This document shows positions 1-39,864 of a stretch of 64,000 nucleotides of DNA, piece after piece. The DNA comes from Eledone cirrhosa. Its lineage: Eukaryota. The position numbers were made by a program, and so were the translations under genes. The stretch is taken from positions 341,186,001 to 341,250,000 of the forward strand of contig OZ024742.1 in assembly GCA_964016885.1 (NCBI GenBank), written 5' to 3'. The first letter of the stretch is position 1; each line of letters starts with the position of its first letter. The notes under the pieces were generated by a model, which was given only the letters and a program-made list of their open reading frames with translations, was not told the DNA's origin and ran no database searches.

Positions 1-142
1 GCATGCGTTTGCGTGTGTGTATAGTGTTGTGTGTGATGTGTGACTAGTGTGTATAGTGTTGTGTCTGCTGGGTGACTAGTGTGTGTTTATGTGTTTGTGT
101 ATGTATTTATTTATCTTATTTTATTTTATTTTATTTACTTAT

Positions 143-1941: not shown

Positions 1942-4269
<2,328 letters not shown>

Positions 4270-7790: not shown

Positions 7791-7934
7791 TTGGTCTAAT
7801 CGGACGTTTCTTGTTGTGTAAGGGATATAAGCCTTGTGAAGGGGAAAGTATAATATTTGGGCCTTTTGGCCCAAATATTTGAACAATATTTGAACGTTTT
7901 ACTTTTGAAAATTTAAAAAGAAAACAAAAGAAAC

Positions 7935-9571
7935 ATGGCTGAGCCAAGCCCCCTCCCCCAGCAATATGTTAGTGGAGGGTTAGTGAAATTCATACAACAA
8001 ACACCACCACAAACAACGTGAACAAAGACAACAACACTAAGAACACTAATTTTGAAAAAATTACTACACCAACTACAACAATAACAGCGTCAACCAAAAT
8101 ACTGACAACAGAAAAAAATGACGAATGCAACAACGATATTAACATCACTAACAAGAAAATAAACAACGACAACACCAACAGCAACAATACAAATTACACC
8201 AAAAACACAACCAAATACAACAGTAATAACAGCAATAACACCAACAACACCGTTTGTAGCAACAGCAACAGCACCAACAACAATACCAATAGCAGCAGTA
8301 ACGGCAGCAATAATGGTGCCGCTGAAAAAGGGGCCACTTCTTTCGCAGGTGTGGCCCGAAATATAGAGACAGTGCTAGTAACGGAGGAGGAGATGGTAGT
8401 CGAAAGAATGACAAGGAATGAAAATAGAGTTTCCCTGAAACCTCCACCCGATTTCTTCAAAGATCAGCAACTGCGCACGGTGACTTACCGCACCGTAAGG
8501 AAAATGTCACATCGGGTGGCGAGAGCCACAGAGGCTCAAATCCAAAAGTCCTTGGGGTGCGTCTGGGCGCGCAAAACCCACATCACCCGAGGTAAAAAGT
8601 ACGCCACAGTAGACGTACTTTTCGCCACTCCCCAAGAGGCGAAGTCTCATTCTTTGGAAACCCTAAAGAGTGAGGAGATAGTCTTGGTGCCCTCCTACTG
8701 CGGACAGAAAATTGTGAGTGTCAAGTGACCCAAGCCCCGTCCTATGTGTCCATACCTTGGCTGGCCGCGCATGTACTGGCTGGAGTCGAGGAGAAGACCA
8801 CCATATTGCAAATACAGAGAATGGGAAGTGAGAACTGGTCAGGAATAGGCATGCAAATGCTAGCACAGACTAACCAGGAGTGCATCAAGGCCATCCCATA
8901 TATCATAGACCTCGAAGAAGGATTCCAGCTCCCTGTAAGCGTGGAGAGAAGGCGCCCAAAGTGCTATCTCTGTGGGCAGAAGGGTCACCTCAGAAGACAG
9001 CCAAGAAGAGGCCCCCCCTCCTTCCGATGCCGTATTTGCTGCTACCAAAAGCGAAGGCAAACGAGGAGGGGTAAAGGCTTCAAGGAAGGGTAAAGGCTTC
9101 AAGGAGACATGCAGCAACACCACCACCATCACCATCACCACCACAAGCATCACCACCAACAACAACCACACCACCACCAGCATCACCAAAAACACCAACA
9201 TCGCAAACACAACAAAACACACATACCCAACAGCAACAAGAAATCAGCAACAAAATCACTCCTCCCCAAAAAGGTACACAGCCATAAACATGGCAAATAA
9301 AGAACTCTTACAACATATAAAGCAGCACACAGACATCACATAAAAAAACTACTACACCCCACCAACACCAAGAACTCTCCCGAAAAACATAAGCATCATT
9401 GAAATCTCAATAGAACATTACAAACTTTTAAAACAAAAATTCCCCAACGCAGTTAGAGACTTCAGAGGGTCGGTTACCAAGAGGATATACACCGACATCC
9501 TCTTGGAAACACCCATGACCAGACAAAGGGACGGTTCTACTGTCCCTTCACCACAAGATCAAGGTAAGTGA
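7935..9571 (+). pseudogene. Tx1-like ORF1 (gag-like), frameshifted
   Basis: ATG GCT start, Asn/Thr-rich N-terminus, conserved RATEAQIQK..G.VW.RKTHITRGKKY block and CYLCGQKGHL knuckle. Confidence 0.85.
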
Positions 9572-9603
9572 TCCTTTCAAACTTACCCCGTTTCTCATCC
9601 AAC

Positions 9604-12396
9604 ATGGCCGTACTTAGAATAGGCAGTATAAATGTACGTGGCCTGGGGTCATCTTGGAAGCAGGGTCACCTGCTCAACGACCTCAGGTCACTAAACATAG
9701 ATGTGGTGGCCATCAGCGAGACCAGAATCTCTGGAGCACGAGCCTTCGCACCGATCTTCGGCGGCTACGATGTATACGCATTTCCCAGCCGTCCAGATTC
9801 GGGGGGAGGAGTTGCCGTGCTTTTTCGGAGAGACTTGGATCTCGCCATACGGGCCATCTTCCTGGACCCAGAAGGTAAGTTGGTGGTGCTGGACGTGACC
9901 GGCAGTGAAGGCAATGCATTCAGGCCGTCTACGCCCCAACAGGGGCAGGAAGGCCAGATTTCTTCAGACGTCTAGAGACCTTTCTTGGAACGCCCCGCTC
10001 TTTAGTGTTAGGGGGCGACTGGAACGGTATCTTAGATGCACGCTGGGATTATGTGGGGCTTGTAGACAGGGCAGGAGGGTGTAAAAGCCTCAACAACCTG
10101 CTCAGACCTTTTAAACTGTCTGACAGGTATAGACTGGATTATCCGAATGTGCTGGATTATCCGAATGTGCCAATGGCAAACCGCATCTGGTCATCCAGAT
10201 CGTATTTAGATAGGGTATTCTGTAGGGAAACAGATAAGGCTTGTGTAGGTTGTCCACAAATGAAAGTAGTCAACTACACGGACCACAAATTTATGATCTG
10301 TGAAGTTGACTTAGATAGACTCCATAGGCAAGGTCTCGGCTACTGGAAGCTGAACGCTTAAGCGTGTGTTGACGGGTTCGATTGTCAACAATAGGTGGTG
10401 GTTTACCCTGAAAAGGGCTATTAGAGTAGAATCGATAAGGTTTAGCAAAGGAGTAGTGATAGAGGAAAATAGAGTAGAGGGAGAGTTAGTTAGAAAGCTA
10501 GAAGAGGCGTTTAGGACAGGCATCGCAACCGACGTGCTAGCGGCGAGATTGGCACTCGACCAATTCTTCAACGCAAAGCATGAAGGCTGCGTTGTCAGAG
10601 CTAGAGCGCTTTCTCTAAGACACGAGGGGACGAAAGCCGTTCAATGGGCCCGGGTGGTGGAGGCGCGACGTGGAAACAAGTCCACAATTCGGTCTTTGCC
10701 TGATCAAAACGGGCGCATGTTGCTCGAACCCGAACAGATGTGTGCGGCTTTTCAACAGCACTTTGCTCAATTGTTCGGGAGCGGTGGCGGGCCGGATCGG
10801 AGTATTGACTTCGGTGCATACCTCATTGGTCTACAGGGGCTCTCGACGACCGCAGCACAGTGCTGCGAAAAGCCGATAACAGCAGGTGAAATAAGGGGAA
10901 GCGATGTCTGACTGCACGAGGGGTAAATCGCCAGGTTTGGATGGTCTGCTCTACGAGCTTTATGCGTATATGCCAGATTTGTTCGGCGACCTCTTGGCAG
11001 ATGTCTACTGCAAATGGCAGCAGAACGGGAGCATTCCCAGTTTTGTCAGCCGGGTAGCTGTGGCGCTGCTGAGAAAAGACCCGAACAAGGGGGAGGTTAT
11101 AGAACACTGCAGGCCCATAACTCTACTAAACACAGAGTTTAAGATTTTGGCCAAGGTGTTAGCAAAGCGATTGGCACTTGTCGTCGGTAATCTGATGGGA
11201 GAGGCGCATAAGTGCGCCATTCTGGACAGATCCCTCCACGACAACCTCCATCTCATGTGATACATCATAGAGAGGGTGGTTAAGGAACCTGGCACGAGTG
11301 GGGCCCTGATCAACTTAGATCAATCGAAAGCATTTAATAGGGTCGACCATCGATAGCTGGCTGCGGTCCTCGAGGCGGCCGGCTTCGGGCCCCTTTTTAG
11401 GGGCTGGATCGCTGCAATGCACAGCGACATCTGCTCGATTGTGAGGGTGAATGGTCACCTGTCGCAGCCTTTCAACATCATGCGCTCGGTCCGTCAGGTT
11501 TGTCACCTCTCGTTGCGTGGAGGACTAGGCATTCCGTGGCTGATGATGCGCAAACATGCGATGAGGCTGCGACATCTGTGGTGCTTCCTTGGCGGTGAAC
11601 AGGTGTAGTCGCCGTTTGCCAGACGCGCTTTTCCCCAGCTCGTCTCCTTGACGGAGCTGCAGTCCTGGATCAGGAAAAGACCGAGGGATAGCGCTTGGAA
11701 GCTGGAATATCTCCAAGCGCTCACCGCCCTTACCAGCTGGGCACTAGTATCGGTGGAACATCAACCTCGGCGTTCTATAGAGGGTTAGTGGAGGGAAAGA
11801 GCGACGACGTACTCCGGGAGACCCTGGGCGTCGAAGACGATCAGCTGTTCGCTCTCTTCAAGAGAACCTTCAGACCGGGGCCTATAGACAACTTCCAGAA
11901 ATCCCTGGCCTGGCAGTGCTACCGGGGAGCGTTCCCAGTTCGGGATAAGCTCTACAGGCACGGAGGTGCTGTCAGCCGAGCCTGTTCGAGATGCGCGCTG
12001 GGCGACGAAACCGTCCTGCACGCACTCGTTCAGTGCCCGAGCATTGCTGACTTGTGGAGCTATGTCGAACAGCTGCTGTCACGTGAAGGATGGATCCGAT
12101 TATCGACTGAGTTCATTGTGCAGATATCCCCGCCATCCTCCTTTAAAAAGGAGGAAGGGCAGGCAGTTTTCATCTGCCTGGTGGCCATGGCAAAAGAGAT
12201 TGTGTGGTGCACAAGGTTGAAAGGGTTGAAGATTGACACTTTCCTCTTCGGCCAATCCCTGATTAACTTTTTCAAGTTTCACTTGAAGAGGAAAATCAGG
12301 GTGGAGAGGCTAGTGCCTAGTAAGTTTGTTGAAAGGTGGGTGAAAGTGGCGAGTCTGGTCCGAGTGAACGGGCCCGCTCTGAGTATGCGCCTGTAG
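9604..12396 (+). pseudogene. Tx1-like ORF2, with stops, frameshifts and an internal deletion removing YADD
   Basis: Contains GSINVRGL, ISET, GDWN, TDHK, KSPGLDGL, RPITLLN and CSRC..DETVLHAL..C. It jumps from SVRQ to LRGGLG near 11500. Confidence 0.92.
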
Positions 12397-12659
12397 ATTG
12401 AGGAGTGGGAAAACTGAGAGAGGGTGCTTGCCCTGGTGGTCAGGATGGCCGTCGTCTTTTTGTGAGGTTTTCGCCACGAGTGACCCTCGGAGGTTTTCCC
12501 CTTTTTGGGAAATTTTTGTTGTTTTAATTTTTTTTTTATTTCTAGCCCGATTTTGTTATAACCTGTTTACACGACCAAAACCCACTTTTTATCGTCCTGT
12601 ACTGTTCTGTGCCGTCTCTGTTTTTCTTCGTGTTAGCCCTTGTGGCCAATAAAGAATCG

Positions 12660-12704
<45 letters not shown>

Positions 12705-12770
12705 ATCATTAATAATGATTTCTTTATTAACCACAAGGGTTTACATAAAGTATTATTATCATTAATAATA
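12660..12770. repeat. (ATT)n/(AAT)n tract containing a ~35-bp minus-strand Tx1 3' stub (12717-12750)
   Basis: gatttctttattaaccacaagggtttacataaagta is identical to the 3' end of copy D at 33681. Confidence 0.85.
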
Positions 12771-12958: not shown

Positions 12959-12975
12959 TTAATAGTAATATTAAA

Positions 12976-15900
12976 GATTTCATTTATTGGCCACAAGGGT
13001 CGACATATAGGAGACAATACAAAAGACTGGGACAGTGGAGTTTTACAGAAAAATCGAGTAAACAATATGAATAGCAATAACAAAGTAACAATAACAATAC
13101 AACAAGAAAAATTCCACAATAGGGGTGATGGCCACCCAGGGTTCGCTCAGGTGCCCCACCAATCCTGAACGACCCGACGTTTCGAGAGCACCCTGGAAAG
13201 GCACCCCTCTCCTCCTCAAATTTACACACCTTCAGGCGCATGACCAGCTATTCTCTCCACATTCACCCACCTTTCAGCAAATGTACTGGAGGGCAGCACT
13301 TCTCCCCCCCCCCCCCTCACCTTCCTTTCCAAGTGAAACTTGAAAAAGTTGATGAGGGATTGGCCGAAGAGAAAAGTGTCTGTCTTCAGTCCTTTCAACC
13401 TCGTCCACCATACAACCTCTTTCGCTACTGCCACCAGACAGAGGAAAATTGCCTGCCCTTCCTGGCAGGTCGATCTTCACTATGGACTCGGCCGATAGCC
13501 GGATCCGTTCTACACGCGACAACAGCTGTTCGACATAACTCCACAAGTCAGTAATGCACGGGCACTGGACGAGTGCGTGCAGAACGGTTTCGTCGCTCTG
13601 CACGCATCTCGGGCAGGTCCGTCTGACAGCACTTCCGTGCCTGTAGAGTTTATCTCGAACCGGCAGTGCCCCGCGGTAGCACTGCCAAGCGAGGGATTTT
13701 TGGAAAATATCCATCGTCCCCGGCTCGAAATTCCTCCGGAACAGACTGGTTAGTTCGACTTCGTCGACTCCCAGAGCCTCTCCGAGTGCTCGTCGCACTT
13801 GCCCACCACTAATCCTCTATAGAACTTGAGAGTGGAAGTTCAACTCACCGCATTTCCCGCTGTGAGTGCTTGGCAACATTCTAGATGCCAGTCACCCAGT
13901 CTCGATCTCTTCTTGACAGAGGACTGCAGTTCAGTCAAACAAACGAGCTGCGGAAAGACCCGTCTGACAAACGGCGACCACACCTGTTCACCGTTTAGGC
14001 AGAATATCTGGAGATGCCGCAGCCTCAGCGCGTGTCTGCGCATCATTAGCCACGGCATATCCATCCCTCCACATAGAGGGTGCTGGCAGCAGATGGACCG
14101 CCTCACCAGCGGAACCTGACCCCTCCACAAGAATTTGAAGAGGAGCCGCTCCAAGATGATGAGGCGCGAACGGGGGCAAGGGACGACAGTCAGACGGTAG
14201 TAGACGACGGGCGCGATGTACGCGTTCGCCACCTTCGCTCGATCTGTCAGTGATAGCATCCTCCCAGCCCATTTCTGGGTAAGACTGGCTACCCTGCCCG
14301 TCACCTCGTCCCAATTCTTATCCACCTGGAGGTCTGGCCCGAACCAAACCCCGAGCAACTAACGACGGTTGGATGGCATGGACTTTCCTCTCCAGGTGCC
14401 GAGTTGCTAGCCCACCGACTTTTCCGGGTTAAGTTTTGCTCCCGTCAACCTTTCATATTCCTCCAATAAGTTGCCAACCACCTCGATTTCTGAGGTGTCC
14501 GACACCATCACGGTGATATCATCCGCATAAGCCGACACAGCCTTTTCGCGTCCCGGTTCGAGCGGGATGCTCTGCAACAGCTCCAGCTTCCGCAATAAAG
14601 GCTCGAGAGTCAATACGTACAGAAGAGAGGAGAGAGGGCACCCTTGACGGACCGATCGGGAGACCTGAAACGGTTCCGCGAGGTGTCCATTAATTTTGAC
14701 CACCGAGAGGGTGCCGCTGTGCATTGCAGCGATCCAGGTACCCATGGTCGACCCTATCGAATGCTTTCGATTGATTTAAATTGATCAGAGCCCCACCGTA
14801 GAGGGCTTCGAGGAGATTGGAGAACAAGTCTGGCATATTTACGTAAAGCTCGTAGGGCACACCATCCAAACCGGGTGACTTGCGCCTCATGCAGCCGACA
14901 AGGGCATCCTGAATCTCGGCTGAAGTAATTGGCTTTTCACAGCGCCCAGCGTTAACCGTCGAGAGTTGCGGCAAGCCATCGAGGTAGGGACTGAAGTACG
15001 CCACCGTCTTTGACCCGCCACTTCCCCCGAACAACCGAGAAAAATGTTAGCGAAAGGCCTCACACATCCGCTTGGAATCGCTCAGCTCGTGTCCGTATTG
15101 GTCCGTCAAAGATCGAATCGTGGTTTTATTACCACGCTGCGCCTCTGCCACGCGGGCCCATCGAACAGCTTTGGTTCCCTCGTTTCTCAGAGCACGCGCC
15201 TTAGCTCTGACAATGCAACGTTCGTGTTTCGCATAGAAGAAATGGTCTAATGCCATTCTCGCCCCCCACCATCTATTGCTGACGACTCCCCTGTCAACTT
15301 TTTCGTAACTAAATTGTTGACCTGGTCCCTGTAAACCTTACGTGCCGGAAATTACATGTTTAGCTTCCAGTAATCAGGTCCTAACCTACGCGTCTTATCT
15401 AGGTCGACCATACAGATCACACATTGGTTATCTGAATAGGCGACCGTTTTAAAACGTGGACAGCTTACACTATTTCTGTCTATTTTCCTAATGAATATCC
15501 TGTCTATATACGATCTAGATGACCCTATGCGGTTAGCCGAGGTCCACACAGGCGCATTAGGGAAATCTAGTCGGTACCTGTCAGACAATTGGAACAGGCT
15601 GATTAAGTTCTTGAGGCTTTTGCACGCCCCGCTCTTATCGGATACTCCCACACAGTCCCATCGTGCGTCTAAGATGCCGTTCCAGTCCCCGCTAACAGTA
15701 AAGGGCGAAACGTACCCAGAAAGGCTTCCAGATGTCTAAAGAAGTAGGGCCATCCTGTCCCAGTAGGGGCATAGACGGCTACCAGTCTAAAGGCACCACC
15801 TTCGTTATTGTTCACGTCCAGAACCACCAAATTCCAGTCCGGTTCCCGGAAGATCGACCTTACCTCGAGATCCAGGCCTTTCCTAAACAGCACTGCCACC

Positions 15901-18275
15901 CCGCCTCCCATTCCCGGCCGGCTAACAGATGCAAAGATCTGATCGTCGTCGAAAATGGGGGCTAGTGCGCGCGTGTCGGAAATACTGGTCTCGCTGACGG
16001 CAATTACAACCATTTCTAGAGACCTGAGGTCGTTGAGCAGGTGACCCTGCTTCCAGGACGATCCCAGGCCTCGAACATTTAAACTTCCTACTCTTAATAC
16101 GGCCAAGTTGGCAGGTTAAAAAGAGAGAGGAAGGTTTACTTACCTTCCGGGTTCTTGTGAAGTTCGGGCGGTTCGACCTCCATTCTTTTGGGAACCCCTT
16201 TAAAATTCTTGAAGTGGGTTTTACGTTCGGGGTTCCCAAGTCCCGAGGAAAGGTGTCTCGTATATCTTTGTATAAATCGAGCGACATTCGCACCAGAAAC
16301 AAATCTTCCGGCACGCGAAATGTGCTCGATTTAAACATTTCCTCCTCTTTTTGTATATTTTCACTTGGTGCTACGAAGGCCATCAATTCCTTGTTGGCCC
16401 TCCTGACGAGCACGAAGTTTTGTATGTTTTGTTGGTGTGATTTTATTTGTTCGCGTGGCTGTGGTGGTGATGGTTTTGGTGGTGTTGTTTCGGTTGTGTC
16501 TGTGTTTGTTGTGAGTGCGGTGTCTGTGGTTTCAGATGTTTGTGTGTGTCTTTGTTCTTGCGTTTGTTTAGGTTGTTTGCGTTTGGGGGATTCTGGTGAT
16601 GGTGGTGTTGATGTTGGTGTTATTGGAGAGATATTTGCGTGGGTGGTGTCTGCATTTTTTATTGTGGGTGATTTTGTGCTTTATTGAGTTTTTCTTTCCT
16701 TTTTGTGTTTCCTTTTTTGTATATTGGGGGATTTTGGTTTTCCCTCATCTTCACTACTGGTAGATGAGGGTTCTGTGTCTGTAAGTATGTCTGTGTGTGT
16801 GTTTATGTTTTTATTGGTGTGTGTTTTGGGGGGGAGGGAGAATTTGACAACTTTCCTCGTTTCCCCCCTGGGTGGTCAATGTTGGTGGTGGTCTTTCTAT
16901 TGGTGTTGTTGTTGGTGGTTTTGCCGGTGCTGGTGTTGGTTGTGGTCCTCTCTCCGGCGTCGGCAGCAGTGGAGCCTTTCGACCCCTTGCTTCTTTTAAC
17001 AGTTGAGGGCAGAAGGCTCGCAAATGGGTTTTTTCCCCACAAACAAAACAATGCGGTCTTTTGCCCTCGGTCATATGAATGACCGTCCTATTCTGAAGGC
17101 GGATGTGGTCCGGGATTGTCTTCACATTCTCGGGCCTGATCTGGAGAAGGATCTCCAGGTCAACCCCGGACGAGTCCTCTCTGACCGTTCTGGTCACTTC
17201 TATCGGGACGGTATCCGTCTCCTCCACAATCACACATCCCAGAAGCCACCACATGTCAAGTCCTGGTGGGATTCTGTGAATGCGGAGAGGGGCCGTTCTT
17301 TTTCCCATGTGGGAGGGGTACATTATGACCTTGCTGGTTTTGCAAGGAGTCATAGCGTGTTTCATAGCGAGGGCTTCTGACTTGAACAGTACCGAAATGG
17401 TGCCTTACTGTCTGCCCGTCGCTATGTATTCGGAGTCTTCTCTGATGCACCTCAGCGTGACTTCGACATTTGATTGTGGGATTAAAGCTGCTCTTTTGGT
17501 TTGTGCTGAGATGCATCTATAATGCACCGTTCTGCGCTCCACTGCCTCAATAGCTTCTACCGGGACAGTTAAGTTGGCCCAGGTTTGCTCCTGCTTGATG
17601 AACTTCCAGGCCTGGGCCAACTTTTCATCTTTGTTTGAGAGGTCCATGTTGAAGCATGGCCTCATTTTTTGCTGCCGCCGCAGCGAAAGTGTTGTTGTTG
17701 TTGTCGTTGGGGGTGTTGTTGTTGTTGTTCTTGTTGGTATTGTTGTTATCACTGTCGCTGTTATCATTGTTGTCTTTGGTGCCGCCGTTGTTCTCGGTGC
17801 AGTTGGTATTGTTGCTGTTGGTGTTGTCGCTGTTTGTTTTCATGTTAGTGGTGTTGATATTGTTGTTGCATTTGTCATTATTTCTGTTATCTGTATTTTC
17901 GTTGTCGCTGTTACTGTCATTTTTGTCAAAATTAGAGTTCTCAGTGTTGTTATCATTGCTGTCTTTGTTCACATTGTTTGTAGTGGTGTTTGTTGTATCA
18001 ATTTCTGTTAATTTCGCCGTAGCGCTCCTCTCAACTTCAACGTCGTTGTCGCAAGACAGCAGACATATCGCTGGGGGCGTGGCTCAGCCATGTTTTTTTT
18101 GTTGTTTTTTTTTCTCGATAATATTTTAAAATGTAAAAAATTTCAAATATTTGGGCCAAAAGGCCCAAATATTATTCTTTCCCCTTCACAGGGCAAATTC
18201 CAAGGACTTGTATGCCTTATATAACAACAAAAAATAAGTTTTCACAGGTAAATAAATAAACTTACGGGAGCGAGT
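12976..18275 (-). mobile_element. L1/Tx1-clade LINE copy B, full span, decayed, divergent subfamily
   Basis: ORF1 starts at 18091 (CFVCGEKTHLRAFC). ORF2 starts at 16106 (GSLNVRGL, SVRQGCPLS, AYADD, CPRC..DETVLHAL..C). The 5' UTR matches copy A and the flanks are AAT-rich. Confidence 0.92.
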
Positions 18276-27494: not shown

Positions 27495-27550
<56 letters not shown>

Positions 27551-27552
<2 letters not shown>

Positions 27553-30500
27553 TTTTCTTTATTAACCACAAGGGTTTACATAAAGTAGACATTAAGGACA
27601 GTACAGGACAATACAGGACGGCACAAATGGGCATTTCTGCGTGTAAAAAAAAACAGCGGATGAAATAAAATAACAAAGAAAAATTCCCCAATAGGGGGGA
27701 GACTTCCGAGGGACATTTGTGGAGAAGGCCCATTCATTCGGGCCATACTTGCTTCTCTCACCCATCTTTCAACAAAATGCTGGGAACAGAGCACTTCCCT
27801 CTCTACCCTGATTTTCCTTTTCAAATGAAATTTGAAAAAGTTAATCAGGGCATCACCGAAGAGGTAAGTGCTCGTCTTCAGCCCTTTCAAACGTGTCCAC
27901 CATACTATCTCTTTCGCCATGGCCACCAGACAGATAAAAACTGCCTGCCCTTCCCGGCTAAAGGAAGAGGGCGGGGCAATCCTCACGATGGACTCAGCTG
28001 ATAGCTGGATCCGTCCTACACGTGACAGCAGGTGTTCGACATAAACCCACAAGTCAGCAATGCTCGGACACTGGACGAGTGCGTGCAGGACGGTTTCGTC
28101 GCCCTGTGCGCATCTCGGACTGCCCGGCTGACGGCACGTCCATGCCTGTAAAGTTTATCCCGAACTGGCAAAGCACCCCGGTAGCACTGCCAGGCCAGGG
28201 ATTTCTGGAAGTTGTCCATAGGCCCCGGCCCGAAAGTCCTTCCGAAGAGATTGGCTAGTTGATTTTCGTCGACGCCTAGAGTTTCTCCAAGTACGTCGTC
28301 GCTCTTCCCCTCCACTAATCCTCTATAGAACGCCAAGGTGGAGTTTCCACCGATCACATTGCCCGATTGGTCGAGGGCTGTGAGCGCCTGAAGACATTCC
28401 AGTCTCCAAGCGCTCCCTCTCGGTCTTCGCTTGACCCAGGACTGCAGCTCCGTCAAGGAGACGAGCTGGGGAAAAACGCGTCTAGCAAACGGCGACCACA
28501 CCTGATCACCGTCGAGGAAGAGGTGGAGATGTCGTAGCCTGAGCGCGTGTCTGCGCATCATCAGCCACGGCATGCCCAGCCCTCCACGTAACGGGTGTTG
28601 ACAGCAGATGGACCGCCTGACCATCGGGGCGCGTCCCTTCCACAAGAAGCGAAAGAGCAAACGCTCCAGCGCAGTCAGGCGGGGCTTATGACAAGGTACG
28701 ACAGTCAGGCGGTAGTAGATGACGGACGCGATGTACGCGTTAGCCACCTCCGCTCGACCTTTCAGGGATAGCTTCCTCTCGGCCCATTTCTGGGTGAGAG
28801 AAGCCACCCTGCTCGTCACCTCGTCCCAGTTTTTGTCCGCCTGGAGGTCTGGACCGAACCAGACCCCTAGCAATTTAACCGGTCCGTCTGTCCAGCGCCC
28901 GACGACGCTGTTGGACGACATGGACCAGCCTCGCCAGGTGCCGAGCTGCAGGCCCACTGACTTTTCCTGGTCGATCATTGCTCCTGTCACCGCTTCGTAT
29001 TCTCTTAGTGTAGTGCCGCTCGCCTCGATGTGTTTGGCGTTCGACACCACTACGGTGACATCGTCGGCATATGCTGACACGGATCTTCCGCATCCTAGTT
29101 CGCGCGGGATCCCCCTCAACGTCTCCAGTTTGTGCAGTAATGGCTCGAGAGTCAATACGTACAATAGGGACGAGAGGGGACATCCTTGGCGGACCGAGCG
29201 CATGATGTTGAACGGTTCCGAAAGGTGACCGTTCACTCTCACTACAGAGCAGATGTTGCTGTGCATGGCAGTGATCCAGCCTCTGAAGACGGGCCAAAAG
29301 CCAGCCGCCCTCAGGACTGCCTCTAGGTAGCGATGGTCGACTCTATCGAAGGCTTTCGACTGATCTAAATTGATCAAAGACCCACCCGTGCCAGGTTCCC
29401 TAGCTACCCTCTCTACGATGTATCGCATGAGGTGGAGGTTGTCGTGGATGGATATGTCGGGAATGGCGCATGTCTGTGCCTCTCCCACCAGACCACCAAC
29501 GACAAGCGCCAACCTCTTTGCTAGCACCTTGGCCAAAATCTTGAACTCTGTGTTTAGCAGAGTTATGGGCCTAAAATTATCTATGTTATCCCCCTTGTTC
29601 GGATCCTTTCTCAGCAGCGCCACCGCTCCTCGGCTCACAGAGCTGGGAATTCTCCCGTTCTGTTGCCAGTTGCAGTAGACGTCCGCCAAGAGGCCTCCGA
29701 ACAAGTTTGGCATTTGTACGTAAAGTTCATAGGGCAGACCATCCAAACCAGGCGATTTACCCCTTGTGCAACTAGTCATTGCATCCCGTACTTCAGCGGT
29801 TGTTATCGGCTTTTCGCAACACTCCGCCTCAGTGGCCGAAAGCCGCGGCAGTCCGTCGAGGTAGACACTAAAGTCCATCCCTCGATCCGGCCCGCCACTG
29901 CCCCCGAACAGTTGAGCGAAGTGTCGCTGAAAAGCTTCACACATTTGCCCGGGATCGAGTAGCATGCGCCCGTCGTGGTCCACCAAAGACCGGATCGTGG
30001 CTTTGTTGCCACGACGCGCCTCCGCCACTCGGGCCCATTGAACGGCTTTCGTCCCCTCGTGTCTGAGAGCACGCACCCTAGCTCTGACAACGCAGCCTTC
30101 GTGCTTTGCATTGAAGAATTGGTCAAGGGCCAATTTCGCCGCAAGTACGTCGGTCGCGATGCCTATTTTTCTCTATTGCTAAAGTCTTACTAAACCAAAT
30201 GGACTCTATTCTAATTGCTCTTTTCAGAGCAAACCACCACTTGTTGTTGACGATGGCCCCCGTCAACGCCCGCTTAACTAGTTCGCTAATCCGGTCTCTG
30301 TAGGCCTTGCGCGCTGGTAAGGACGCGTTTAGCTTCCAGTAGCCGGGTCCTCGTCTATGAAGCCTATCTAAGTCAAGCACACAGATCACGAATTTGTGGT
30401 CCGTGTAGCTGACTATCTTGAATTGTGGACAGCCTATGCTAGACCTATCTATTTCCCTACAAAATACTCTATCTAGATATGATCTGGATGACCCTATGCG

Positions 30501-32735
30501 ATTTGTCCAAGTCCACATTGGTACATTCGGGAAATCCATTCGGTACCTGTCAGACAGTTCAAAACGTCTGAGCAGGTTGGTGAGACTCTTGCACCCTCCT
30601 TCCCTATCCACTAATCCCACACAATCCCAGCGTGCATCTAAGATCCCGTTCCAGTCGCCCACTAACACTAAAGAGCGGGACGTTCCAAGAAAGGTCTCCA
30701 GACGGCGGAAGAAATCAGGCCGCCCTGCTCCTGTCGGGGCATAGACGGCCACTAACCTGAAAGCTTGCCCGTCTCCGCTGGTCACGTCCAGCACCACCAA
30801 CTTACCTTCTGGGTCCAGGAAGATGGCCCGTATGGCAAGATCCAAACCTCTCCGAAAAAGCACAGCAACTCCTCCCCCCCGATCCCGGACGGCTGGGAGA
30901 TGCGTACACATCGTAGCCGCCGAAGATCGGTGCGAAAGCCTGTGCTTCGGAGATTCTGGTCTCGCTGATGGCCACTACATCTATGTTTAGTGACCTGAGG
31001 TCGTTGAGCAGGTGGCCCTGCTTCCATGACGACCCCAAGCCACGCGCATTTATGCTGCCTATTCTGAGTGAGGTCATGTTGAAAAGGAGTGGAAAAGATG
31101 GGAAAGACCACTTACCTTACTTCTCGTAAGGGAAGGATGGTTTTTCCATCCTTTTCACTGCTTGTGGCCTCCTCAGGAAGGATGTCCTTATAAATCCTCC
31201 TGGAGAGTGCTTGTCGGAAGTTTCCGATGTCTTTGGGGAATTTTTGTTTTAGTGTCATGTACGTTTTCTGTGTGATGCGAGTGATTTGTATGTGTGGAGG
31301 TGGTGTGAATTTTGGGGTTGTTGTGTAGTCTTTTTCTGTGATGCTGGTGTTGTGTTGGATGTAGTGTAATAATTGCTTGTTGTTCAAATTTAATGCTGTG
31401 TAGTGTGTATCGTTTTGGTTGTTTTCTTTTGTTTGCGTTTGTTGTGGGTTTGTTTCTGTTTCGCATTTTGGTGACTTTTGTGGTGTAGGTGATGGTGGTG
31501 TTGGAGTTAATGATGGTGATGGTGTTGGTGTTTGGGTTGATGGGGTTGGTGATGCTGGTGTGGATGGTGGCATATCTGTCCTAACTTTTTTGTTTCTTAG
31601 TTTATTTGTTTCCCTCTGTATTTTGTTTCTGGAGGGGGAAGGAAGAGAATTTTTTCTTTTTTGGTTTCTTTTTTTTTTTCCGGATATCGTTTCCCACTCC
31701 TCGTCGTCACAATCTGTCTCCAGTTGTGATAGGCCGGGGAGTGGAAAATCCTCCACAGGCGTTAGTTTTGGTTGTGGCGTGGTGGATGGTGTAGGCGCTG
31801 GTGCTAGTTCTGAAGCGTTGGGTGGTGGTGGTGTTGGTTTTGCTGGTGGTGGTGGTGGTGTTGGTTTTGCTACTGTTGCTGGGGTTGTTGCTGTTATAGT
31901 TGCTTCTGTTGTTGCTGCTACAGTTGTTGCTGCCATCTCTGCTACTGGTGGTGTTGATGGTTGTGTCACTGGGGTGGGTAGGAGAGGTGGCCTCAACCTT
32001 TTAGCCTGATGGCAGAAAGCCCTTAGGTGGGTTCCTTCACCACAAACGACACACCTAGGTCTTTTGCCCTTGACAATTACCGTGAGGTGGCTGCCGTCAG
32101 TGAGGTCTATTACCTCTGGGATCTCCTCAATGCTATTTTTGGTCCGCTTGGATCAGGAGCTCCATCCCAGATCCGGACCAGTTCTCCTGCTTTTCTTTTG
32201 CTATTGCTATTATTTTCGTGTTGGCTTCGATGCCGGCGAGGACAGCCGCTATTAGCCAGGGAATTTTGATGGCCGGTGGAACGTGGGTCACCCTGATCTT
32301 TACGAGTCTCTGGCCACAATAGCTTGGGACGAGTGTGAAGTCGTCACTTCTTAATGGGGCCATGGAGTGTTCTCTAGCCTCCTCTGGTGTTTCAAAGAAC
32401 ACGTCCATGGTTCCATACTTTTGCCCACGTCTGATGTGGGTTTTTCTTGCCCACACATGTCCCAAAGCTATTTGGATTTGGGACTCGGATGCCCGTTCCA
32501 CTCGGCGCGATTTTACATTTATTGTTCTATACGACACGGTGCATAGGCGCCGATGCTCCATTTTATTAGGTGGGGGGTGAGGCTGACCCTGTACCCATCT
32601 TTCTTTACCATTTGTTTGGCATTTTCTAAATCCTCCTGAGTTACCGTAAATGCTTCGAACTGTTTTGCTACTCTGGCGAAACTGAGGGGGGGGGGGGGTT
32701 ATAATGTCATTGTTGTTGTTGTTGCTATCGTTAAT
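27551..32735 (-). mobile_element. L1/Tx1-clade LINE copy C, 5'-truncated in ORF1
   Basis: ORF2 31077-27730 is broken by frameshifts and a deletion near 30165, and is nearly identical to copy D. ORF1 remnants lie at 32700-31112. Confidence 0.94.
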
Positions 32736-32740
32736 ATTAA

Positions 32741-33627
32741 TTAAATACCCAGAACGAGCTAACAATCCTGATGTTGACAAAACTTTAACCCATCAGTGGT
32801 TGGCATCCTCTGGACTGAAATCGGAGACTGAAGGACTGATTATATCAGCACAAGATCAGTGTCTGCCAACAGAAAATTACCAAACCAACATAATAAAAAA
32901 TGGATGCAGCCCATTATGCCGTGTATGTAAAAAACAACCAGAGACCATTGACCATATAATTTCAATGTGCAGTCCTATAGCTCCAACCGAATACCTAAAC
33001 AGGCATGACAAAGCTGCACAATACATACATTGGATAATGTGTAAGCATTTTGGCCTGCCCCATCAAAAGAATTGGTGGGAGCATCAACCACCTCCCATAC
33101 TTGAAAAAGATCACATCTCAATCTTGTGGAACTTTAGCATCCAAACAGACCGACAAATAGATGCAAATAGACCTGATATAATACTGAAGGACTTTAAAAA
33201 GAGGGTATGCCTGCTAATTGATATGTCCGTTCCAATAGACAAGAATGTATCTATAAAAACATTTGAAAAATTGAGCAAGTATAAGGACCTGGAGATAGAA
33301 ATTGGAAAAATGTGGAAATTGAGAACTAAAACAATACCAGTGGTTGTAGGCGCTCTAGGAATGATACCTAAGGGGTCTAATGATTACTTATCGCAAATCC
33401 CAGGAAACCCGCGTATAGGAGAAGTACAAAAGATAGTACTAATGGGAACTGCCCATATACTAAGGAAGATTCTGTCAATATAAGTACATTACAAGTCTAA
33501 ACACCTAAAGATGCATGTGTGAGTATGTATGTTTTTTCTTGAACATGGCGGACCTTGTTGTCTCTTGAGGTCACTGGTTGTGACTTGGTGATAACTCGTA
33601 TGAACATAAAGCAAGATAAATGCAGCT

Positions 33628-33629
<2 letters not shown>
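32741..33629 (+). mobile_element. R4/Dong-like RLE element 3' fragment (second family)
   Basis: LKSETEGLIISAQDQCL, CRVC...ETIDHIISMC, RHD, ANRPDI..D..K..EKLSKYKDL. The ORF ends at 33483, followed by an (AAT)n tail. Confidence 0.92.
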
Positions 33630-33682
<53 letters not shown>

Positions 33683-33942
33683 TTTCTTTATTAACCACAA
33701 GGGTTTACATAAAGTAGACATTAAGGACAGTGCAGGACAATGCAGGACGGTACAAATAGGCATTTCTGCGTGTAAAAAAACAAAAACAGAGGATGTAACA
33801 AAAATAACAATGAAAATAACAATGAAAAATTCCCCAATAGGGGGGAGACTTCGGAGGGACATTTGTGGAGAAAGCCCAGTAAAAAGCCACAATGACCCTG
33901 ACCACCAAGGCAAGTGCCCTCTCCCAGTTTTCCACCTTTAGT

Positions 33943-36900
33943 TTACAGATATATACTCAGAGTCGGCCCATTCACTCGGGCCATTCTTGCTTCTCTCACC
34001 CATCTTTCAACAAAATGCTGGGAAGAGAGCACTTCCCTCTCTACTCTGATTTTCCTTTTCAAATGAAATTTGAAAAAGTCAATCAGAGCATCACCGAAGA
34101 GGTAAGTGCTCGTCTTCAGCCCTTTCAAACGTGTCCACCATACTATCTCTTTCGCCATGGCCACCAGACAGATAAAAACTGCCTGCCCTTCCCGGCTAAA
34201 GGAGGAGGGCGGGGCAATCCTCACGATAGACTCAGATGATAGCTGGATCCGTCCTAAACGCGACAGCAGGTGTTCGACATAAACCCACAAGTCAGCAATT
34301 TTCGGACACTGGACGAGTGCGTGCAGGACGGTTTCGTCGCCCTGCGCGCATCTCGGACATGCCCGGCTGACGGCACCTCCATGCCTGTAGAGTTTATCCC
34401 GAACTGGCAAGGCTCCTCGGTAGCACTGCCAGGCCAGAGATTTCTGGAAGTTGTCCATAGGCCCCGGCCCGAAAGTTCTTCCGAAGAGATTGGCTAGTTG
34501 ATTTTCGTCGACGCCTAGAGTTTCCCCAAGTACGTCGTCGCGCTTCCCCTCCACTAATCCTCTATAGAACGCCGAGGTGGAGTTTCCACCGATCACATTG
34601 CCCGATTGGTCGAGGGCTGTGAGCGCCTGAAGACATTCCAGTCTCCAGGCGCTCCCTCTCGGTCTTCGCTTGACCCAGGACTGCAGCTCCGTCAAGGAAA
34701 CGAGCTGGGGAAAAACGCGTCTAGCAAACGGCGACCACACCTGATCACCGTCGAGGAAGAGGTGGAGATGTCGTAGCCTGAGCGCGTGCCTGCGCATCAT
34801 CAGCCACGGCATGCCCAGCCCTCCACGTAGCGGGTGTTGACAACAGATGGACCGCCTGACCATCGGAGCACGTCCCTTCCACAAAAAGCGAAAGAGCAAA
34901 CGCTCCAGCGCAGTCAGGCGAGGCTTAGGACAAGGTACGACGGTTAGGCGGTAGCAGATGACAGACGCGATGTACGCGTTAGCCACCTCCGCTCGACCTT
35001 TCAGGGATAGCTTCCTCTCCGCCCATTTCTGGGTGAGAGAAGCCACCCTGCTCGTCACCTCGTCCCAGTTTTTGTCCGTCTGGAGGTCCGGACCGAACCA
35101 GACCCCTAGCAATTTAACCGGTCCGTCCGTCCAGCGTCCGACGACGCTGTTGGACGGCATGGACCTGCCTCTCCAGGTGCCGAGCTGCAGGCCCACTGAC
35201 TTTTCCTGGTTGATCATTGCTCCTGTCACCGCTTCGTATTCTCTTAGTGTAGTGCCGATCGCCTCGATGTGTTTGGCGTTCGACACCACTACGGTGACAT
35301 CGTCCGCATATGCTGATACGGATCTTCCGCATCCTAGTTCGCGCGGGACCCCCCTCAATGTCTCCAGTTTGTGCAGTAATGGCTCGAGAGTCAATACGTA
35401 CAAGAGGGACGAGAGGGGACATCCTTGGCGGACCGAGCGCATGATGTTGAACGGTTCCGACAGGTGACCGTTCACTCTCACCACAGAGCAGATGTCGCTG
35501 TGCATGGCAGCGATCCAGCCTCTGAAGACGGGCCCAAAGCCAGCCGCCCTCAGGACTGCCGCTAGGTAACGATGGTCGACCCTATCGAAAGCTTTCGACT
35601 GATCTAAATTGATCAAGGACCCACCCGTGCCAGGTTCCCTAGCTACCCTCTCTACGATGTATCGCATGAGGTGGAGGTTGTGGTGGATGGATCTGTCGGG
35701 AATGGCGCATGTCTGCGCCTCTCCCACCAGACCACCAACGACAAGCGCCAACCTCTTTGCTAGCACCTTGGCCAAAATCTTAAACTCTGTGTTTAGCAGA
35801 GTTATGGGCCGGAAATTGTCTATGTTATCCCCCTTGTTCGGATCCTTTCTCAGCAGTGCCACCGCTCCTCGGCTCACAGAACTCGGAATTCTCCCGTTCT
35901 GTTGCCAGTTGCAGTAGACGTCCGCCAAGAGGCCTCCGAACAAGTCTGGCATCTGTACGTAAAGTTCATAGGGCAGACCATCCAAACCAGGCGATTTACC
36001 CCTTGTGCAGCCAGTCATTGCCTCCCTTACTTCAGCGGCTGTTATCGGCTTTTCGCAACACTTCGCCTCAGTGGCCGAGAGCCGCGGCAGTCCGTCGAGG
36101 TAGACACTAAAGTCCATCCCTCTACCCGGCCCCCCGCTGCCCCCGAACAGCTGAGCGAAGTGTCGCTGAAAAGCTTCACACATTTGCCCGGGATCGAGTA
36201 GCATGCGCCCGTCGTGGTCCACCAAAGACCGGATCGTGGCTTTGTTGCCACGACGCGCCTCCGCCACTCGGGCCCATTGAACGGCTTTCGTCCCCTCGTG
36301 TCTGAGAGCACGCACCCTAGCTCTGACAACGCAGCCTTCGTGCTTTGCATTGAAGAATTGGTCAAGGGCCAATTTCGCCGCAAGCACGTCGGTCGCAATG
36401 CCTTTGCTAAGCGCCTCGTCTAATTTTCTAACTAGTTCTCCCTCTGCTCTATTTTTCTCTATTGCTAAAGCCTTACTAAACCTAATCGATTCTATTCTAA
36501 TCGCTCTTTTCAGAGCAAACCACCACTTGTTGTTGACGATGGCCCCCGTCAACGCCCGCTTAACTAGTTCGCTAATCCGGTCTCTGTAGGCCTTGCGCGC
36601 TGGTAAGGACGCGTTTAGCTTCCAGTAGCCGGGTCCTCGTCTATGAAGCCTATCTAAGTCAAGCACACAGATCACGAATTTGTGGTCCGTGTAGCTGACT
36701 ATCTTGAATTGTGGACAGCCTATGCTAGACCTATCTATTTCCCTACAAAATACTCTATCTAGATATGATCTGGATGACCCTATACGGTTTGTCCAAGTCC
36801 ACATTGGCACATTCGGGAAATCCAATCGGTACCTGTCAGACAGTTCAAAACGCCTGAGCAGGTTGGTGAGGCTCTTGCACCCTCCACCCCTATCCGCTAA

Positions 36901-37362
36901 TCCCACACAGTCCCAGCGTGCATCTAAGATCCCGTTCCAGTCGCCCACTAACACTAAAGAGCGGGACGTTCCAAGAAAGGTCTCCAGACGCCGGAAGAAA
37001 TCAGGCCGCCCTGCTCCTGTCGGGGCATAGACGGCCACTAGCCTGAAAGCTTGCCCGTCTCCGCTGGTCACGTCCAGCACCACCAGCTTACCCTCTGGGT
37101 CCAGGAAGATGGCCCGTATGGCGAGATCCAAACCTCTCCGAAAAAGCACAGCAACTCCTCCACCCGATCCAGGACGGCTGGGAGATGCGTACACATCGTA
37201 GCCGCCGAAGATCGGTACGAAGGCCCGTGCTTCGGAGATTCTGGTCTCGCTGATGGCCACTACATCTATGTTTAGTGACCTGAGGTCGTTGAGCAGGTGA
37301 CCCTGCTTCCATGACGACCCCAAGCCACGCGCATTTATGCTGCCTATTCTGAGTGAGGTCAT
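33943..37362 (-). CDS. Intact Tx1-like ORF2: APE endonuclease + reverse transcriptase + Zn finger (1139 aa)
   Basis: GSINARGL, ISET, VGDWN, YLDRVF, TDHK; DQSKAFDRVDH, SVRQGCPLS, AYADD, LLGV; CPRC..DETVLHALVQC. Confidence 0.97.
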   Translation of the reverse strand: MTSLRIGSINARGLGSSWKQGHLLNDLRSLNIDVVAISETRISEARAFVPIFGGYDVYASPSRPGSGGGVAVLFRRGLDLAIRAIFLDPEGKLVVLDVTSGDGQAFRLVAVYAPTGAGRPDFFRRLETFLGTSRSLVLVGDWNGILDARWDCVGLADRGGGCKSLTNLLRRFELSDRYRLDFPNVPMWTWTNRIGSSRSYLDRVFCREIDRSSIGCPQFKIVSYTDHKFVICVLDLDRLHRRGPGYWKLNASLPARKAYRDRISELVKRALTGAIVNNKWWFALKRAIRIESIRFSKALAIEKNRAEGELVRKLDEALSKGIATDVLAAKLALDQFFNAKHEGCVVRARVRALRHEGTKAVQWARVAEARRGNKATIRSLVDHDGRMLLDPGQMCEAFQRHFAQLFGGSGGPGRGMDFSVYLDGLPRLSATEAKCCEKPITAAEVREAMTGCTRGKSPGLDGLPYELYVQMPDLFGGLLADVYCNWQQNGRIPSSVSRGAVALLRKDPNKGDNIDNFRPITLLNTEFKILAKVLAKRLALVVGGLVGEAQTCAIPDRSIHHNLHLMRYIVERVAREPGTGGSLINLDQSKAFDRVDHRYLAAVLRAAGFGPVFRGWIAAMHSDICSVVRVNGHLSEPFNIMRSVRQGCPLSSLLYVLTLEPLLHKLETLRGVPRELGCGRSVSAYADDVTVVVSNAKHIEAIGTTLREYEAVTGAMINQEKSVGLQLGTWRGRSMPSNSVVGRWTDGPVKLLGVWFGPDLQTDKNWDEVTSRVASLTQKWAERKLSLKGRAEVANAYIASVICYRLTVVPCPKPRLTALERLLFRFLWKGRAPMVRRSICCQHPLRGGLGMPWLMMRRHALRLRHLHLFLDGDQVWSPFARRVFPQLVSLTELQSWVKRRPRGSAWRLECLQALTALDQSGNVIGGNSTSAFYRGLVEGKRDDVLGETLGVDENQLANLFGRTFGPGPMDNFQKSLAWQCYRGALPVRDKLYRHGGAVSRACPRCAQGDETVLHALVQCPKIADLWVYVEHLLSRLGRIQLSSESIVRIAPPSSFSREGQAVFICLVAMAKEIVWWTRLKGLKTSTYLFGDALIDFFKFHLKRKIRVEREVLSSQHFVERWVREARMARVNGPTLSIYL

Positions 37363-37397
37363 GTTTAAAATAGAGTGGAAAAGATGGGAAAGACCAC

Positions 37398-39472
37398 TTA
37401 CCGTACTTTTGGTAGAGGAGGGATGGTTTTTACATCCCTTTTCACTTGATCGTCTGGTGAAGGGACCGTTGAATCGTCCCTTCGGCTGGTCGTCGGCTCT
37501 TCTAAGAGAATGTCTGAGTATACTCTTCGATTGATGGTTCCTCCTAGGTCCCTGAAATCACCAACTGCGTTGGGGAATTTCGTTTTAATGTTTGTGTATT
37601 GTTTCTGTGCTATTTTTAGCAGTCTTATGTTAGTTGGCGTTTTGATTGGTGCTGGTATTATGTAGTCCTTTTGTGAAATGTCTGTGTGTTCAATTATGTA
37701 AGTCATTAGTTTCTTGTTGTGTGTATTTATTGCCGTGCATTTGTTTTTCTGGGGGTGGGGTGTGGTTCTGCTATTTTCTTGTCGTTGTTGCTGGGTGTGT
37801 GTGTTTTGTTGTTGTGTTTGCGATGTTGGTGCTTGTGGTGGTGGTGTTGAAGGTGTTGTTGGCGGTGGGGTTGTCGCCGGTGGTGATGGTGGTGCTAGTG
37901 TGGGTGGTGATGGTGTTGGTGTTGTTGCTGCTGTGGGTCTCTTTGCAGTAGACTTTACCCTTTTCTCATTTCTTTCCTCCCTTTTCAAAGGCGACGATGC
38001 GCTGCTTCTGCGTTTGTGCCTTCTTGCGACCTTTTGCCATCCCTCTCCCACCTCACACTCCATGTCTGATTCTGTGAGGTCGGGGAGGGGTACCAGCTCC
38101 ACTCTTTCACTTGTTGTTGGTGATGTTTGCACTGGAGTCTCTGTTGCAGCTGCATTTGGTATTGCTGTTGTTGTTGTTAATATTTCCACTGCTGCTGCTG
38201 TTTTTGATTTCCGTGGCGTGGGTATGGGTGCCACGGACCTATCGTTCCTGGTTGCCGCTTGTCCTGTTGCTGGTAGCCGTGGAGCCGGATTCGGAAGGAG
38301 GGGGGTTTTCTCCTTTCTCAGGGTCTTCTCGTTGCAGAAGGCCCTGAGGTGAGTCTTCGATCCACAGCGAAAGCATTTCGGGCGTTTGCCCTCAACACTT
38401 ATGGGCAGTTGAGTGCCGTTATCGAAGTCTATCACATCCGGGATAGCTTCGATGCACTCCTGGTTGGTTTGGATTAGCATCTCAATGGAGGAGCCGACCC
38501 AATCTTCTCTTACTTTTTTCTGTACTTGCAGTACAGTTGTTTTGTCCTCGATTCCGATTAGGACAGACGCGGCCAGCCAAGAAGGGGTCATTCCGGGGGG
38601 GGGGGGGCGTGGGACAGTTTGACCCTCACAATTTTTTGCCCGCAGTAGGAGGGCACCAACACCATTTCCTCGCTCCTTAGGGTCACTACTGATTGGGCCT
38701 TTGCCTCCTGGGGTGTGGCAAAAAGTACGTCTACGGTGGCATATTTTTTGCCTCGGGTGATGTGCGTTTTCCGCTGCCACACAGACCCCAAGGCTTTTTG
38801 TATTTGGGCCTCTGTGGCTCTTTCCACCCTACGGGATTTTGTACTTACTGTACGGTACGTGACCGTACAGTGCTCTTGGGTTTTGAAAAATTTTTCCGCT
38901 GCCTTGCAGATTGCTCGGTGTCCGTTCTTTGTCACCATCTTCTTCGCTTCCTCTAATTCCTCATTTGTTATGAGGATTGTTTCCAAGTTTTTCGCAATAC
39001 CTGCAAATGAGATTGGTTTTTCTCTGCTGTTGTTGTTGTCGTCAGAGCTGCTGGTACTTTTGTTGTTGCTGCAGGTACTACGACTACTGCCTCCGCCGCT
39101 GTTGCTGCTAATGCTGTTGTTGTTTATGCTGCTGGTGATGCTGTTGCGGCTGCTACTGTTGTTTTCATTGTCACTGTTGCAGTTGTTATTACGGCTGCTA
39201 CTGCTATTATTCCTGACGTCAGACGAATGAACTGGGTTTTCGTATTTCCCGCACACCTGTTTCGTCGCTGTCGTCGTCGTCGTGGAGAAACCTTGCACGC
39301 TTTGCACGAGACTTTTCTTTTCTTTCGTCACTTGCGAAAGAGAAGGGAGGGAGAGAGACACATTTAAAGAAGGGAGGGAGAGAGACAATCTTCTCTCTGC
39401 TGTAGTGATGATTGAGGAAGAAGAAGACGGAATGAGTGGGAGTGACGTATGAAATTTCTTTTTCGTAGCCAT
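37398..39472 (-). CDS. Tx1-like ORF1 (~690 aa), single frameshift in a G13 run at 38595-38607
   Basis: Two overlapping ORFs join at the homopolymer. Contains the CFRCGSKTHLRAFC knuckle and the aaacaacATGGCT start shared with copies A and B. Confidence 0.88.
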
Positions 39473-39864
39473 GTTGTTTTTTTGTTTAAAATGAAATTTT
39501 GGGTACAAAACCCCAATAACTGGTTATTTAACCCCGAAGGGCCAAATAACGGACAGAAAGACCCCTCTCACGAGGAGGAGGGTGTCTTTATCAACAATTT
39601 GGTTCAAGTTTTAAACAATTTACAATTGTTTTAACGGTTAAAAATTACTATACCTTACAGAGCCGAGCCTCCGTCAACCATGGCATTCAATAATAATAAT
39701 AATAATACAATGGGAAGACGTGTTATGGAACTTTTCCATGGTGTTCCAGGTAAGCGCTCCCTAAGGAAGTAGCTAGATATTCAGGGAGTGTATATATACA
39801 CTCCGTGTGTGTATATATATATATATATTGGAAAATGTGTGAAGTCCTTGGTACAGTTAGGTAT

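Follow-up and report, generated by a model that had tools for sequence, protein, structure and literature searches.

A recombinant L1/Tx1-type LINE of Eledone cirrhosa with its junction at an ORF1-end splice-donor motif

The LINE copies of the window

Within the window, meaning the whole stretch of 64,000 nucleotides of Eledone cirrhosa DNA that was analysed, four LINE copies related to one another lie between 7.8 and 39.7 kb. Copy A is on the forward strand, and B, C and D are on the reverse strand (Table 1). Judged by the domains of ORF2, the affinity to L1, the knuckle in ORF1 and the 3′ end, these copies are L1/Tx1-type LINEs. ORF2 of D gives Pfam matches to PF03372, PF00078 and PF13966 (N-terminal APE endonuclease, RT and C-terminal zinc-binding region), and it matches human L1 ORF2p at E=1e-52 over residues 5-854, compared with E=2e-21 or weaker for R2 proteins. 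ORF1 of D is a separate upstream ORF that carries a C-x2-C-x4-H-x4-C knuckle. A Pfam scan of this ORF1 returned no match, and zf-CCHC was found in three of the six homologues scanned. Homologues of D ORF1 amount to 91 matches, and four of the ten proteins looked up are from Octopus sinensis, O. vulgaris and O. bimaculoides. At their 3′ ends A, C and D have AATAAA followed by an (ATT)n tail, features that the 3′ end of B lacks. As far as four copies can tell, ATT runs accompany these elements on both sides: they are seen at the 5′ ends of A, B and D as well as in the tails of A, C and D.

Word-index protein searches with parts of ORF1 found no match and also no longer fused form, which counts as weak evidence. 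A pattern scan of viral contigs produced 117 loci, none of which has a tblastn match to the D proteins, and when metagenomes were scanned with D ORF2, no relative came up.

The two frames of D ORF1 overlap around a C run near 38597-38607, which is the sole frame break in this ORF. The differences in this place are unique to D when compared with all four sequencing runs, and the break is likely a local error or a private mutation.

Other repeats surround these copies. Between C and D, at 32686-33630 on the forward strand, a different LINE is represented by its 3′ fragment, which has an (AAT)n tail and a weak zf-RVT match and which we take to resemble Dong/R4; D lies within the (AAT)n tail of this fragment, on the opposite strand. 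Directly after the tail of A, two short inverted 3′-end fragments of D's LINE group occupy 12715-12760 and 12960-13019, so this (ATT)n cluster was hit several times. At the beginning of the window, positions 1-3713 form a large inverted repeat, whose oppositely oriented arms, 1-1773 and 1942-3713, share 99.5% identity. It spans an ORF with a weak RT match and is either a fold-back element or an assembly artefact.

Table 1 Features of the four LINE copies, in positions of the window
Feature	Position	Strand	Remark
Copy A	7793..12660	+	Decayed LINE, proxy for the ORF1 parent; ends approximate
A terminal block	9523..9563	+	41 nt, CAG before it
A donor motif	9564..9569	+	GTAAGT, 9/9, phase 1; A-like part of D ends here
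Copy B	13246..18270	-	Decayed, more distant LINE; 5′ module common with A; ends approximate
B donor motif	16138..16143	-	GTAAGT, 9/9; AAG 41 nt upstream
Copy C	27550..32700	-	LINE with incomplete 5′ end, proxy for the ORF2 parent; ends approximate
C donor motif	31110..31115	-	GTAAGT, 9/9, phase 2; overlaps ORF1 stop
C terminal block	31116..31157	-	42 nt
C CAG	31158..31160	-	Putative cryptic acceptor; C-like part of D starts directly after
Copy D	33690..39690	-	Full-length L1/Tx1-type LINE in an (ATT)n run; ends approximate
D 3′ UTR candidate 3′ splice site	33766..33793	-	Top of 124 YAGs downstream of donor; weak
D ORF2	33943..37362	-	Intact, 1139 aa, C-like; APE endonuclease, RT, zf-RVT
D inter-ORF spacer	37363..37395	-	Pyrimidine-rich, 76% C+T
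D donor motif	37396..37401	-	GTAAGT, 8/9, phase 2; overlaps ORF1 stop
D ORF1	37398..39472	-	A-like core, CCHC-type knuckle, C-terminal domain; two overlapping frames
D terminal block 2	37402..37444	-	43 nt, C-like; 31/40 ungapped, 35/42 with one-base insertion (hand count)
D terminal block 1	37445..37485	-	41 nt, A-like (34/40), CAG before it

Copy D combines two lineages

How do the two halves of D relate to its neighbours? In the ORF1 core D is 69.4% identical to A and 59.4% to C (653 ungapped four-way columns). The order is reversed in the spacer and endonuclease, where the identities are 84.3% to A and 97.2% to C (779 ungapped four-way columns), and again in the 3′ part of ORF2, with 82.8% and 97.1% (797 such columns). 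This agrees with the first-pass annotation, which had described the ORF1 core of D as closer to A and its ORF2 as almost that of C. Sites with D=A and with D=C stand at 205:113 left of the junction and at 14:228 right of it (Fisher p=4e-51). Separate trees of the modules, which had been suggested in the same annotation, are incongruent: from four rows only, the ORF1 core groups (D,A) with support 90/95, while both ORF2 segments group (D,C) with 97/99 and 100/100. A local alignment of D with C starts at D 37446 / C 31159, which is the AG of the junction, and spans 3483 nt at 95% identity.

D is a recombinant LINE, composed of an A-type ORF1 and the C-type last 42 nt of ORF1, spacer and ORF2. 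A and C are to be read as proxies for its parents; A matches the ORF1 core of D at only 69% identity and is located on the opposite strand.

A second exchange concerns the 5′ ends of A and B, whose common 5′ UTR had already been noted. The 5′ module of these two copies is 69% identical over 530 nt (blastn), and in 109 four-way columns it reaches 79% vs 49% to D. A and B have the 5′ UTR and the low-complexity start of ORF1 in common, but the similarity of their ORF1 cores is only 46%. The region of the switch, at A 8250-8340 / B 17690-17760, is AAC-rich and contains no donor scoring at least 8/9. As this swap lacks a strong donor, recombination other than splicing also acts on these LINEs. The earlier suggestion that modules are shuffled between subfamilies, perhaps by splicing, can thus be kept for the shuffling, which the chimera and the incongruent trees bear out, but not for splicing as a general route.

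An out-of-register join at the end of ORF1

In A (forward strand) the ORF1 block ends at 9563, and GTAAGT comes next at 9564-9569. In C (reverse strand) the CAG at 31160-31158 is followed by TGAAAAGG from 31157. In D (reverse strand) GATCAAG ends at 37445 and TGAAAAGGG starts at 37444. The strings that had been quoted for the three copies are all present where they were placed.

The join in D is out of register. It lies 41 nt off the homologous alignment and gives D two ORF1-end blocks. The ORF1 tails of A and C can be aligned end to end without a gap, leaving an extra block in D, and the terminal block of C is collinear with C's own ORF1. Since block 1 of D is A-like (34/40), block 2 is C-like, and the cross pairs share 18-22 of 40 positions (20/40 for block 1 vs block 2 of D, 21/40 for A vs C), one out-of-register join explains D.

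The consequences for the protein appear to be small. The donor of A has reading phase 1 and the CAG of C phase 2; block 2 of D contains one extra base 8 nt past the junction, which leads back into C's frame, and D ORF1 is in frame across the junction. The A-type ending is likely ancestral, since the DQGK that closes A also closes P0008, a distant homologue of ORF1 (32% identity). In a model of the ORF1 end, no secondary structure is predicted after residue ~85 (mean pLDDT 69), and a fold search with the C-terminal model gave no match at E<=0.001. Block 2 of D differs from C at 7 of 42 positions, which is above the 4% of ORF2 (binomial p=0.0013); the true partner of D, or the age of the join, may therefore be different.

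How D may have arisen

Can the mechanism behind this join be read from the copies that we see today? The explanation that we favour is splicing of an A-type RNA onto a C-type RNA, followed by retrotransposition. A cryptic CAG in a C-type RNA would have served as acceptor for the donor motif at the end of the A-type ORF1, and the spliced product would then have been retrotransposed. The splicing may have occurred in cis, by read-through into a same-strand neighbour within an (ATT)n cluster, or in trans. Later, a one-base insertion would have restored the C-type frame, and the hybrid would have multiplied as an autonomous family. A preference for (ATT)n targets would supply same-strand neighbours, such as B, C and D, although A lies on the opposite strand and has 69% identity to D in ORF1.

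Because the partner's own stop, donor and spacer all come after the acceptor, D retains ORF1 and ORF2 in full, with a normal spacer between them. The predicted cost is small, D gaining only ~14 residues in a tail that is predicted to be unstructured. The putative acceptor of C is located within coding sequence and is weak, with 12 pyrimidines among 24 positions, which confirms an earlier remark on its pyrimidine tract; the C-side position of the junction also depends on one indel. The splice reading rests on one junction, noticed after the fact and with proxy parents, and we put its chances at about even. The first-pass annotation had proposed such an origin, and no other single reading accounts better for this one junction. 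Template switching stays in play through 7 nt of microhomology that A and C share beside the junction.

According to this second explanation, C-type RT or cDNA that was inserting in or beside an A-type (ATT)n tail switched or annealed off-register where short homology allowed it, and the cut would fall at the donor by chance. The shared 7-mer, CCACAAG, ends 6 nt (A) and 3 nt (C) before the junction, and it is the only off-register one of the 16 7-mers common to the compared tails of A and C. D, however, differs from it at two of seven positions and retains the last 7 nt of A, GATCAAG, and had the switch occurred at the 7-mer, D should be shorter by 3 nt. The junction itself offers a terminal AG as microhomology, but with the left flank of D the homology there is AG only (score 4, met by 56% of cells), and far better homology is available in register. 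Opportunity would have been given if, as the four copies suggest, the elements insert in (ATT)n runs; carrying (ATT)n tails themselves, their copies would then cluster. Template switching can further point to the other swap in the window, between A and B, which has no splice signal. In the parts of PMC3600994 drawn on here it is, together with RNA/DNA heteroduplex models, the standard account of recombinant mouse L1 families. The place of the cut also speaks against a coincidence. If all joins are counted that have 2 nt or more of microhomology, those that cut A at the donor make up 0.2-1.3% (9/695, 14/2675 and 20/10074 for tails of 60, 150 and 300 nt). On the other side, the last 98 nt of C (60 nt plus spacer) contain nine AGs and a single YAG, which is the site used, and AAG sites would give longer microhomology. 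We regard template switching as the main rival, quite possible if on balance doubtful.

A third explanation reverses the roles of C and D. A block of 41-43 nt would have been duplicated in the D lineage, and C would be the recombinant, in which a foreign ORF1 was joined in register to block 2 and ORF2 of D. D and A are indeed related over both ORFs (69% and 83-84%), ORF1 tails evolve fast, and the block has an AG at both ends that could guide slippage. Yet the two blocks of D share 20/40 positions, no more than the 21/40 of A and C, whereas block 1 shares 34/40 with A; for the same reason the simple duplication of ~42 bp, which had been listed as an alternative before, is unlikely. The collinearity of the C block with C's own ORF1 likewise speaks against this scenario, which in addition requires two events, the second with its breakpoint at the identical base. 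Overall we consider it improbable.

That misassembly or a single rearrangement of this locus produced the junction, as the long-read style homopolymer frameshifts in these copies and the C-D gap of less than 1 kb might suggest, is hardly credible given that D ORF1 is in frame across the junction and that single contigs of ~99% identity bridge it in three of four sequencing runs from three studies.

D in other sequencing runs

Part of the stretch is contained in 20 of the 24 runs listed (15 studies), and eight runs contain at least half of its words. The junction was checked in four of them, X1, X4, X5 and X7. The single contigs that bridge it, under three organism labels and with at least 72 letters on each side, cover 35656-38025 in X4 (15 differences, 0 gaps), 37373-38890 in X5 (11 differences, 8 gap letters) and 37336-38749 in X7 (17 differences, 8 gap letters). 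X7 belongs to the same study, P1, as the best-matching run, which may be the source of the window, so that two other studies remain. In X1 no bridging contig was found among the contigs listed. With junction-spanning contigs in three of four runs, D represents a family and not an assembly artefact. This ORF1/ORF2 hybrid family is real, and it is likely young.

The summed contig depth in X1 decreases from ~690,000 in ORF2 to ~116,000 just inside ORF1, where depth is not to be equated with copy number. No loose end or joint was seen at the D junction or donor among those listed (24 of 6837 loose ends and 15 of 2296 joints). In the contig comparison the region of the 3′ UTR acceptor was flagged as a skipped repeat.

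The runs also differ in how many contigs match D (33720-39650), namely 39 in X4 vs 60078 in X1 and 11380 in X5. In X4 most of D is covered by four long contigs at ~99% identity. X4 would thus hold the D family almost without older relatives, which reflects either horizontal transfer or a low-level carry-over of DNA through diet or contamination.

A donor motif at the end of ORF1

The junction of D directs attention to the motif itself. G|GTAAGT stands at the end of ORF1 in all four copies, scoring 9/9 in A, B and C and 8/9 in D, where the score is the number of matches out of nine to a splice-donor consensus. Since C and D share the donor region, the four copies amount to three independent cases. 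In D the ORF1-end motif is the only site that scores at least 8 in 6001 nt. The motif is kept in different phases (1 in A, 2 in C and D), which suggests, as far as such copies can indicate, a constraint at the nucleotide level. It is followed by spacers with 71-81% pyrimidines across the copies. A second 9/9 motif lies within the endonuclease of A and C and is not kept in B or D, so motifs of this kind can also come from codons. A, B, C and block 1 of D each have an AG at a distance of 41-42 nt ahead of the donor; the CAG is thus probably inherited, and the repeat unit of D is bounded by AG and GT, like an exon.

Does the motif extend to L1/Tx1 elements in general? This was rejected, as there is no enrichment in 26 distant families: donors of at least 7/9 occur in 4 of 26 against a shuffle mean of 3.6 (p=0.50), and donors of at least 8/9 in 1 of 26 against 0.54 expected (p=0.43). 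The set was drawn from metagenome contigs with 76 loci, of which 37 have no ORF2 start and the other 39 form 28 families; two of these have too little upstream DNA, and one locus was scored per family. Donor-like motifs 41-61 nt before ORF2 were observed at L141/L154/L192 (8/9), L123/L142 (7/9) and L189 (7/9), not above chance. The donor feature, if functional, is therefore specific to a lineage.

What could such a donor normally do? Candidate uses, read from DNA, are an intron that skips ORF2, a mini-intron of 52-59 nt, or docking of U1 as in Copia. In plant Ty1/Copia elements, which are LTR retrotransposons, a short GAG RNA is made by demonstrated splicing; the donor used is conserved and stands where the structural gene ends, and U1 binding at this donor also blocks early termination (PMC5580714). 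The Copia short GAG RNA may serve as a model for the normal role of the putative donor in the D group.

An intron that skips ORF2 would need a 3′ splice site downstream of it. With an ad hoc score, an acceptor in the 3′ UTR ranks first among the downstream YAGs in A (n=113) and D (n=124) and is tied for first in C (n=119). Against shuffles of the copies' own UTRs it reaches p=0.002 in A, 0.13 in D and 0.30 in C. Its position differs between A and C/D, and it is missing from the top five of B. We also note textbook-looking 3′ splice sites at 33765 (D), 27636 (C) and 12546 (A), located 75-110 nt before the poly(A) signal. When each copy's donor is joined to its 3′ UTR site, the same frame of a common terminal sequence is entered despite the differing phases (chance 1/3). 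The mini-intron of 52-59 nt could be drawn in each of the four copies and would place ORF1 and ORF2 in one frame. It constitutes a weak lead: AGs occur there in every phase, A has its first YAG out of frame, and in both A and B conserved residues at the start of the endonuclease would be lost.

Taken further, the ORF1-end donor might be a working signal that normally drops ORF2 as an intron, with an acceptor in the 3′ UTR and an ORF1-only mRNA as product, or docks U1, and that also grafts ORF1s onto other ORF2s and thereby founds families such as D. We offer this extended reading tentatively and hold it to be rather unlikely.

Relation to known systems

Splicing has been reported as the origin of a multiplied retroelement family in human SVA_F1. 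SVA_F1 and gibbon LAVA are non-autonomous composites, unlike D, which is a two-ORF LINE with LINEs as both of its partners. For LAVA, too, splicing was proposed as the origin of a multiplied retroelement family, namely trans-splicing in its model B (PMC5174737, in the parts used here), which provides a parallel to D.

Mammals offer a precedent for chimeras of retroelements made by splicing. In their mRNA/LINE-1 chimeras the 5′ partner is joined to a cryptic acceptor within the LINE, and the proposal is that cis- or trans-splicing came first and retrotransposition of the resulting RNA second (PMC13174262). In D, judged via proxy A, the 5′ partner likewise ends exactly at a splice donor; while in those chimeras, as far as these parts of PMC13174262 describe them, a host exon replaces the promoter, the 5′ part of D consists of a LINE 5′ UTR and a whole ORF1 with the element's own donor. 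SpIREs (spliced integrated retrotransposed L1 elements) offer a second comparison (PMC5860796). In them the LINE's own splice sites leave a spliced junction in a retrotransposed copy, as they would have done in D if A and C are taken as stand-ins for the parents. SpIREs are, however, internal deletions within one element and mostly dead ends, whereas D gains 41-43 nt, joins two lineages, has both ORFs with an intact ORF2 and recurs in other runs.

Among recombinant LINE families, mouse L1 Tf and Gf resemble D in the differing ancestries of ORF1 and ORF2 and in a recombinant that founded a family. For these the portions of PMC3600994 considered here offer strand-switching and heteroduplex models and name no splice signal, in contrast to the out-of-register join on a donor motif in D. 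In its insertion sites the D group is reminiscent of the Tx1 families Kibi and Koshi, which are APE-type LINEs in microsatellites (PMC4494074), the apparent target here being (ATT)n.

For cephalopods, 13 recently active L1-Tx1 families are described in Octopus vulgaris (PMC13282606). The main text of that paper does not mention ORF1, splicing or chimeras, and that of PMC8967140 does not mention ORF1 or splicing. A literature search that left subscription journals, Repbase and Dfam outside its scope found, among the papers listed, none on an ORF1-end donor or a splice-made ORF1 swap in cephalopod LINEs. Entries in Repbase or Dfam may already describe families of the D group.

Families of LINEs swap 5′ UTRs and ORF1, and template switching is usually credited with these exchanges since their breakpoints bear no signature. 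D presents a junction, defined to a single base, that fits splicing; unlike most spliced L1 copies, it retains both of its ORFs and is encountered again in other samples. If template switching is the true origin, D is an ordinary recombinant family. If splicing is, it would add a route by which autonomous LINEs can exchange their ORF1, and the donor at the end of ORF1 would be a new feature of LINE gene expression, comparable to the short GAG RNA of Copia.
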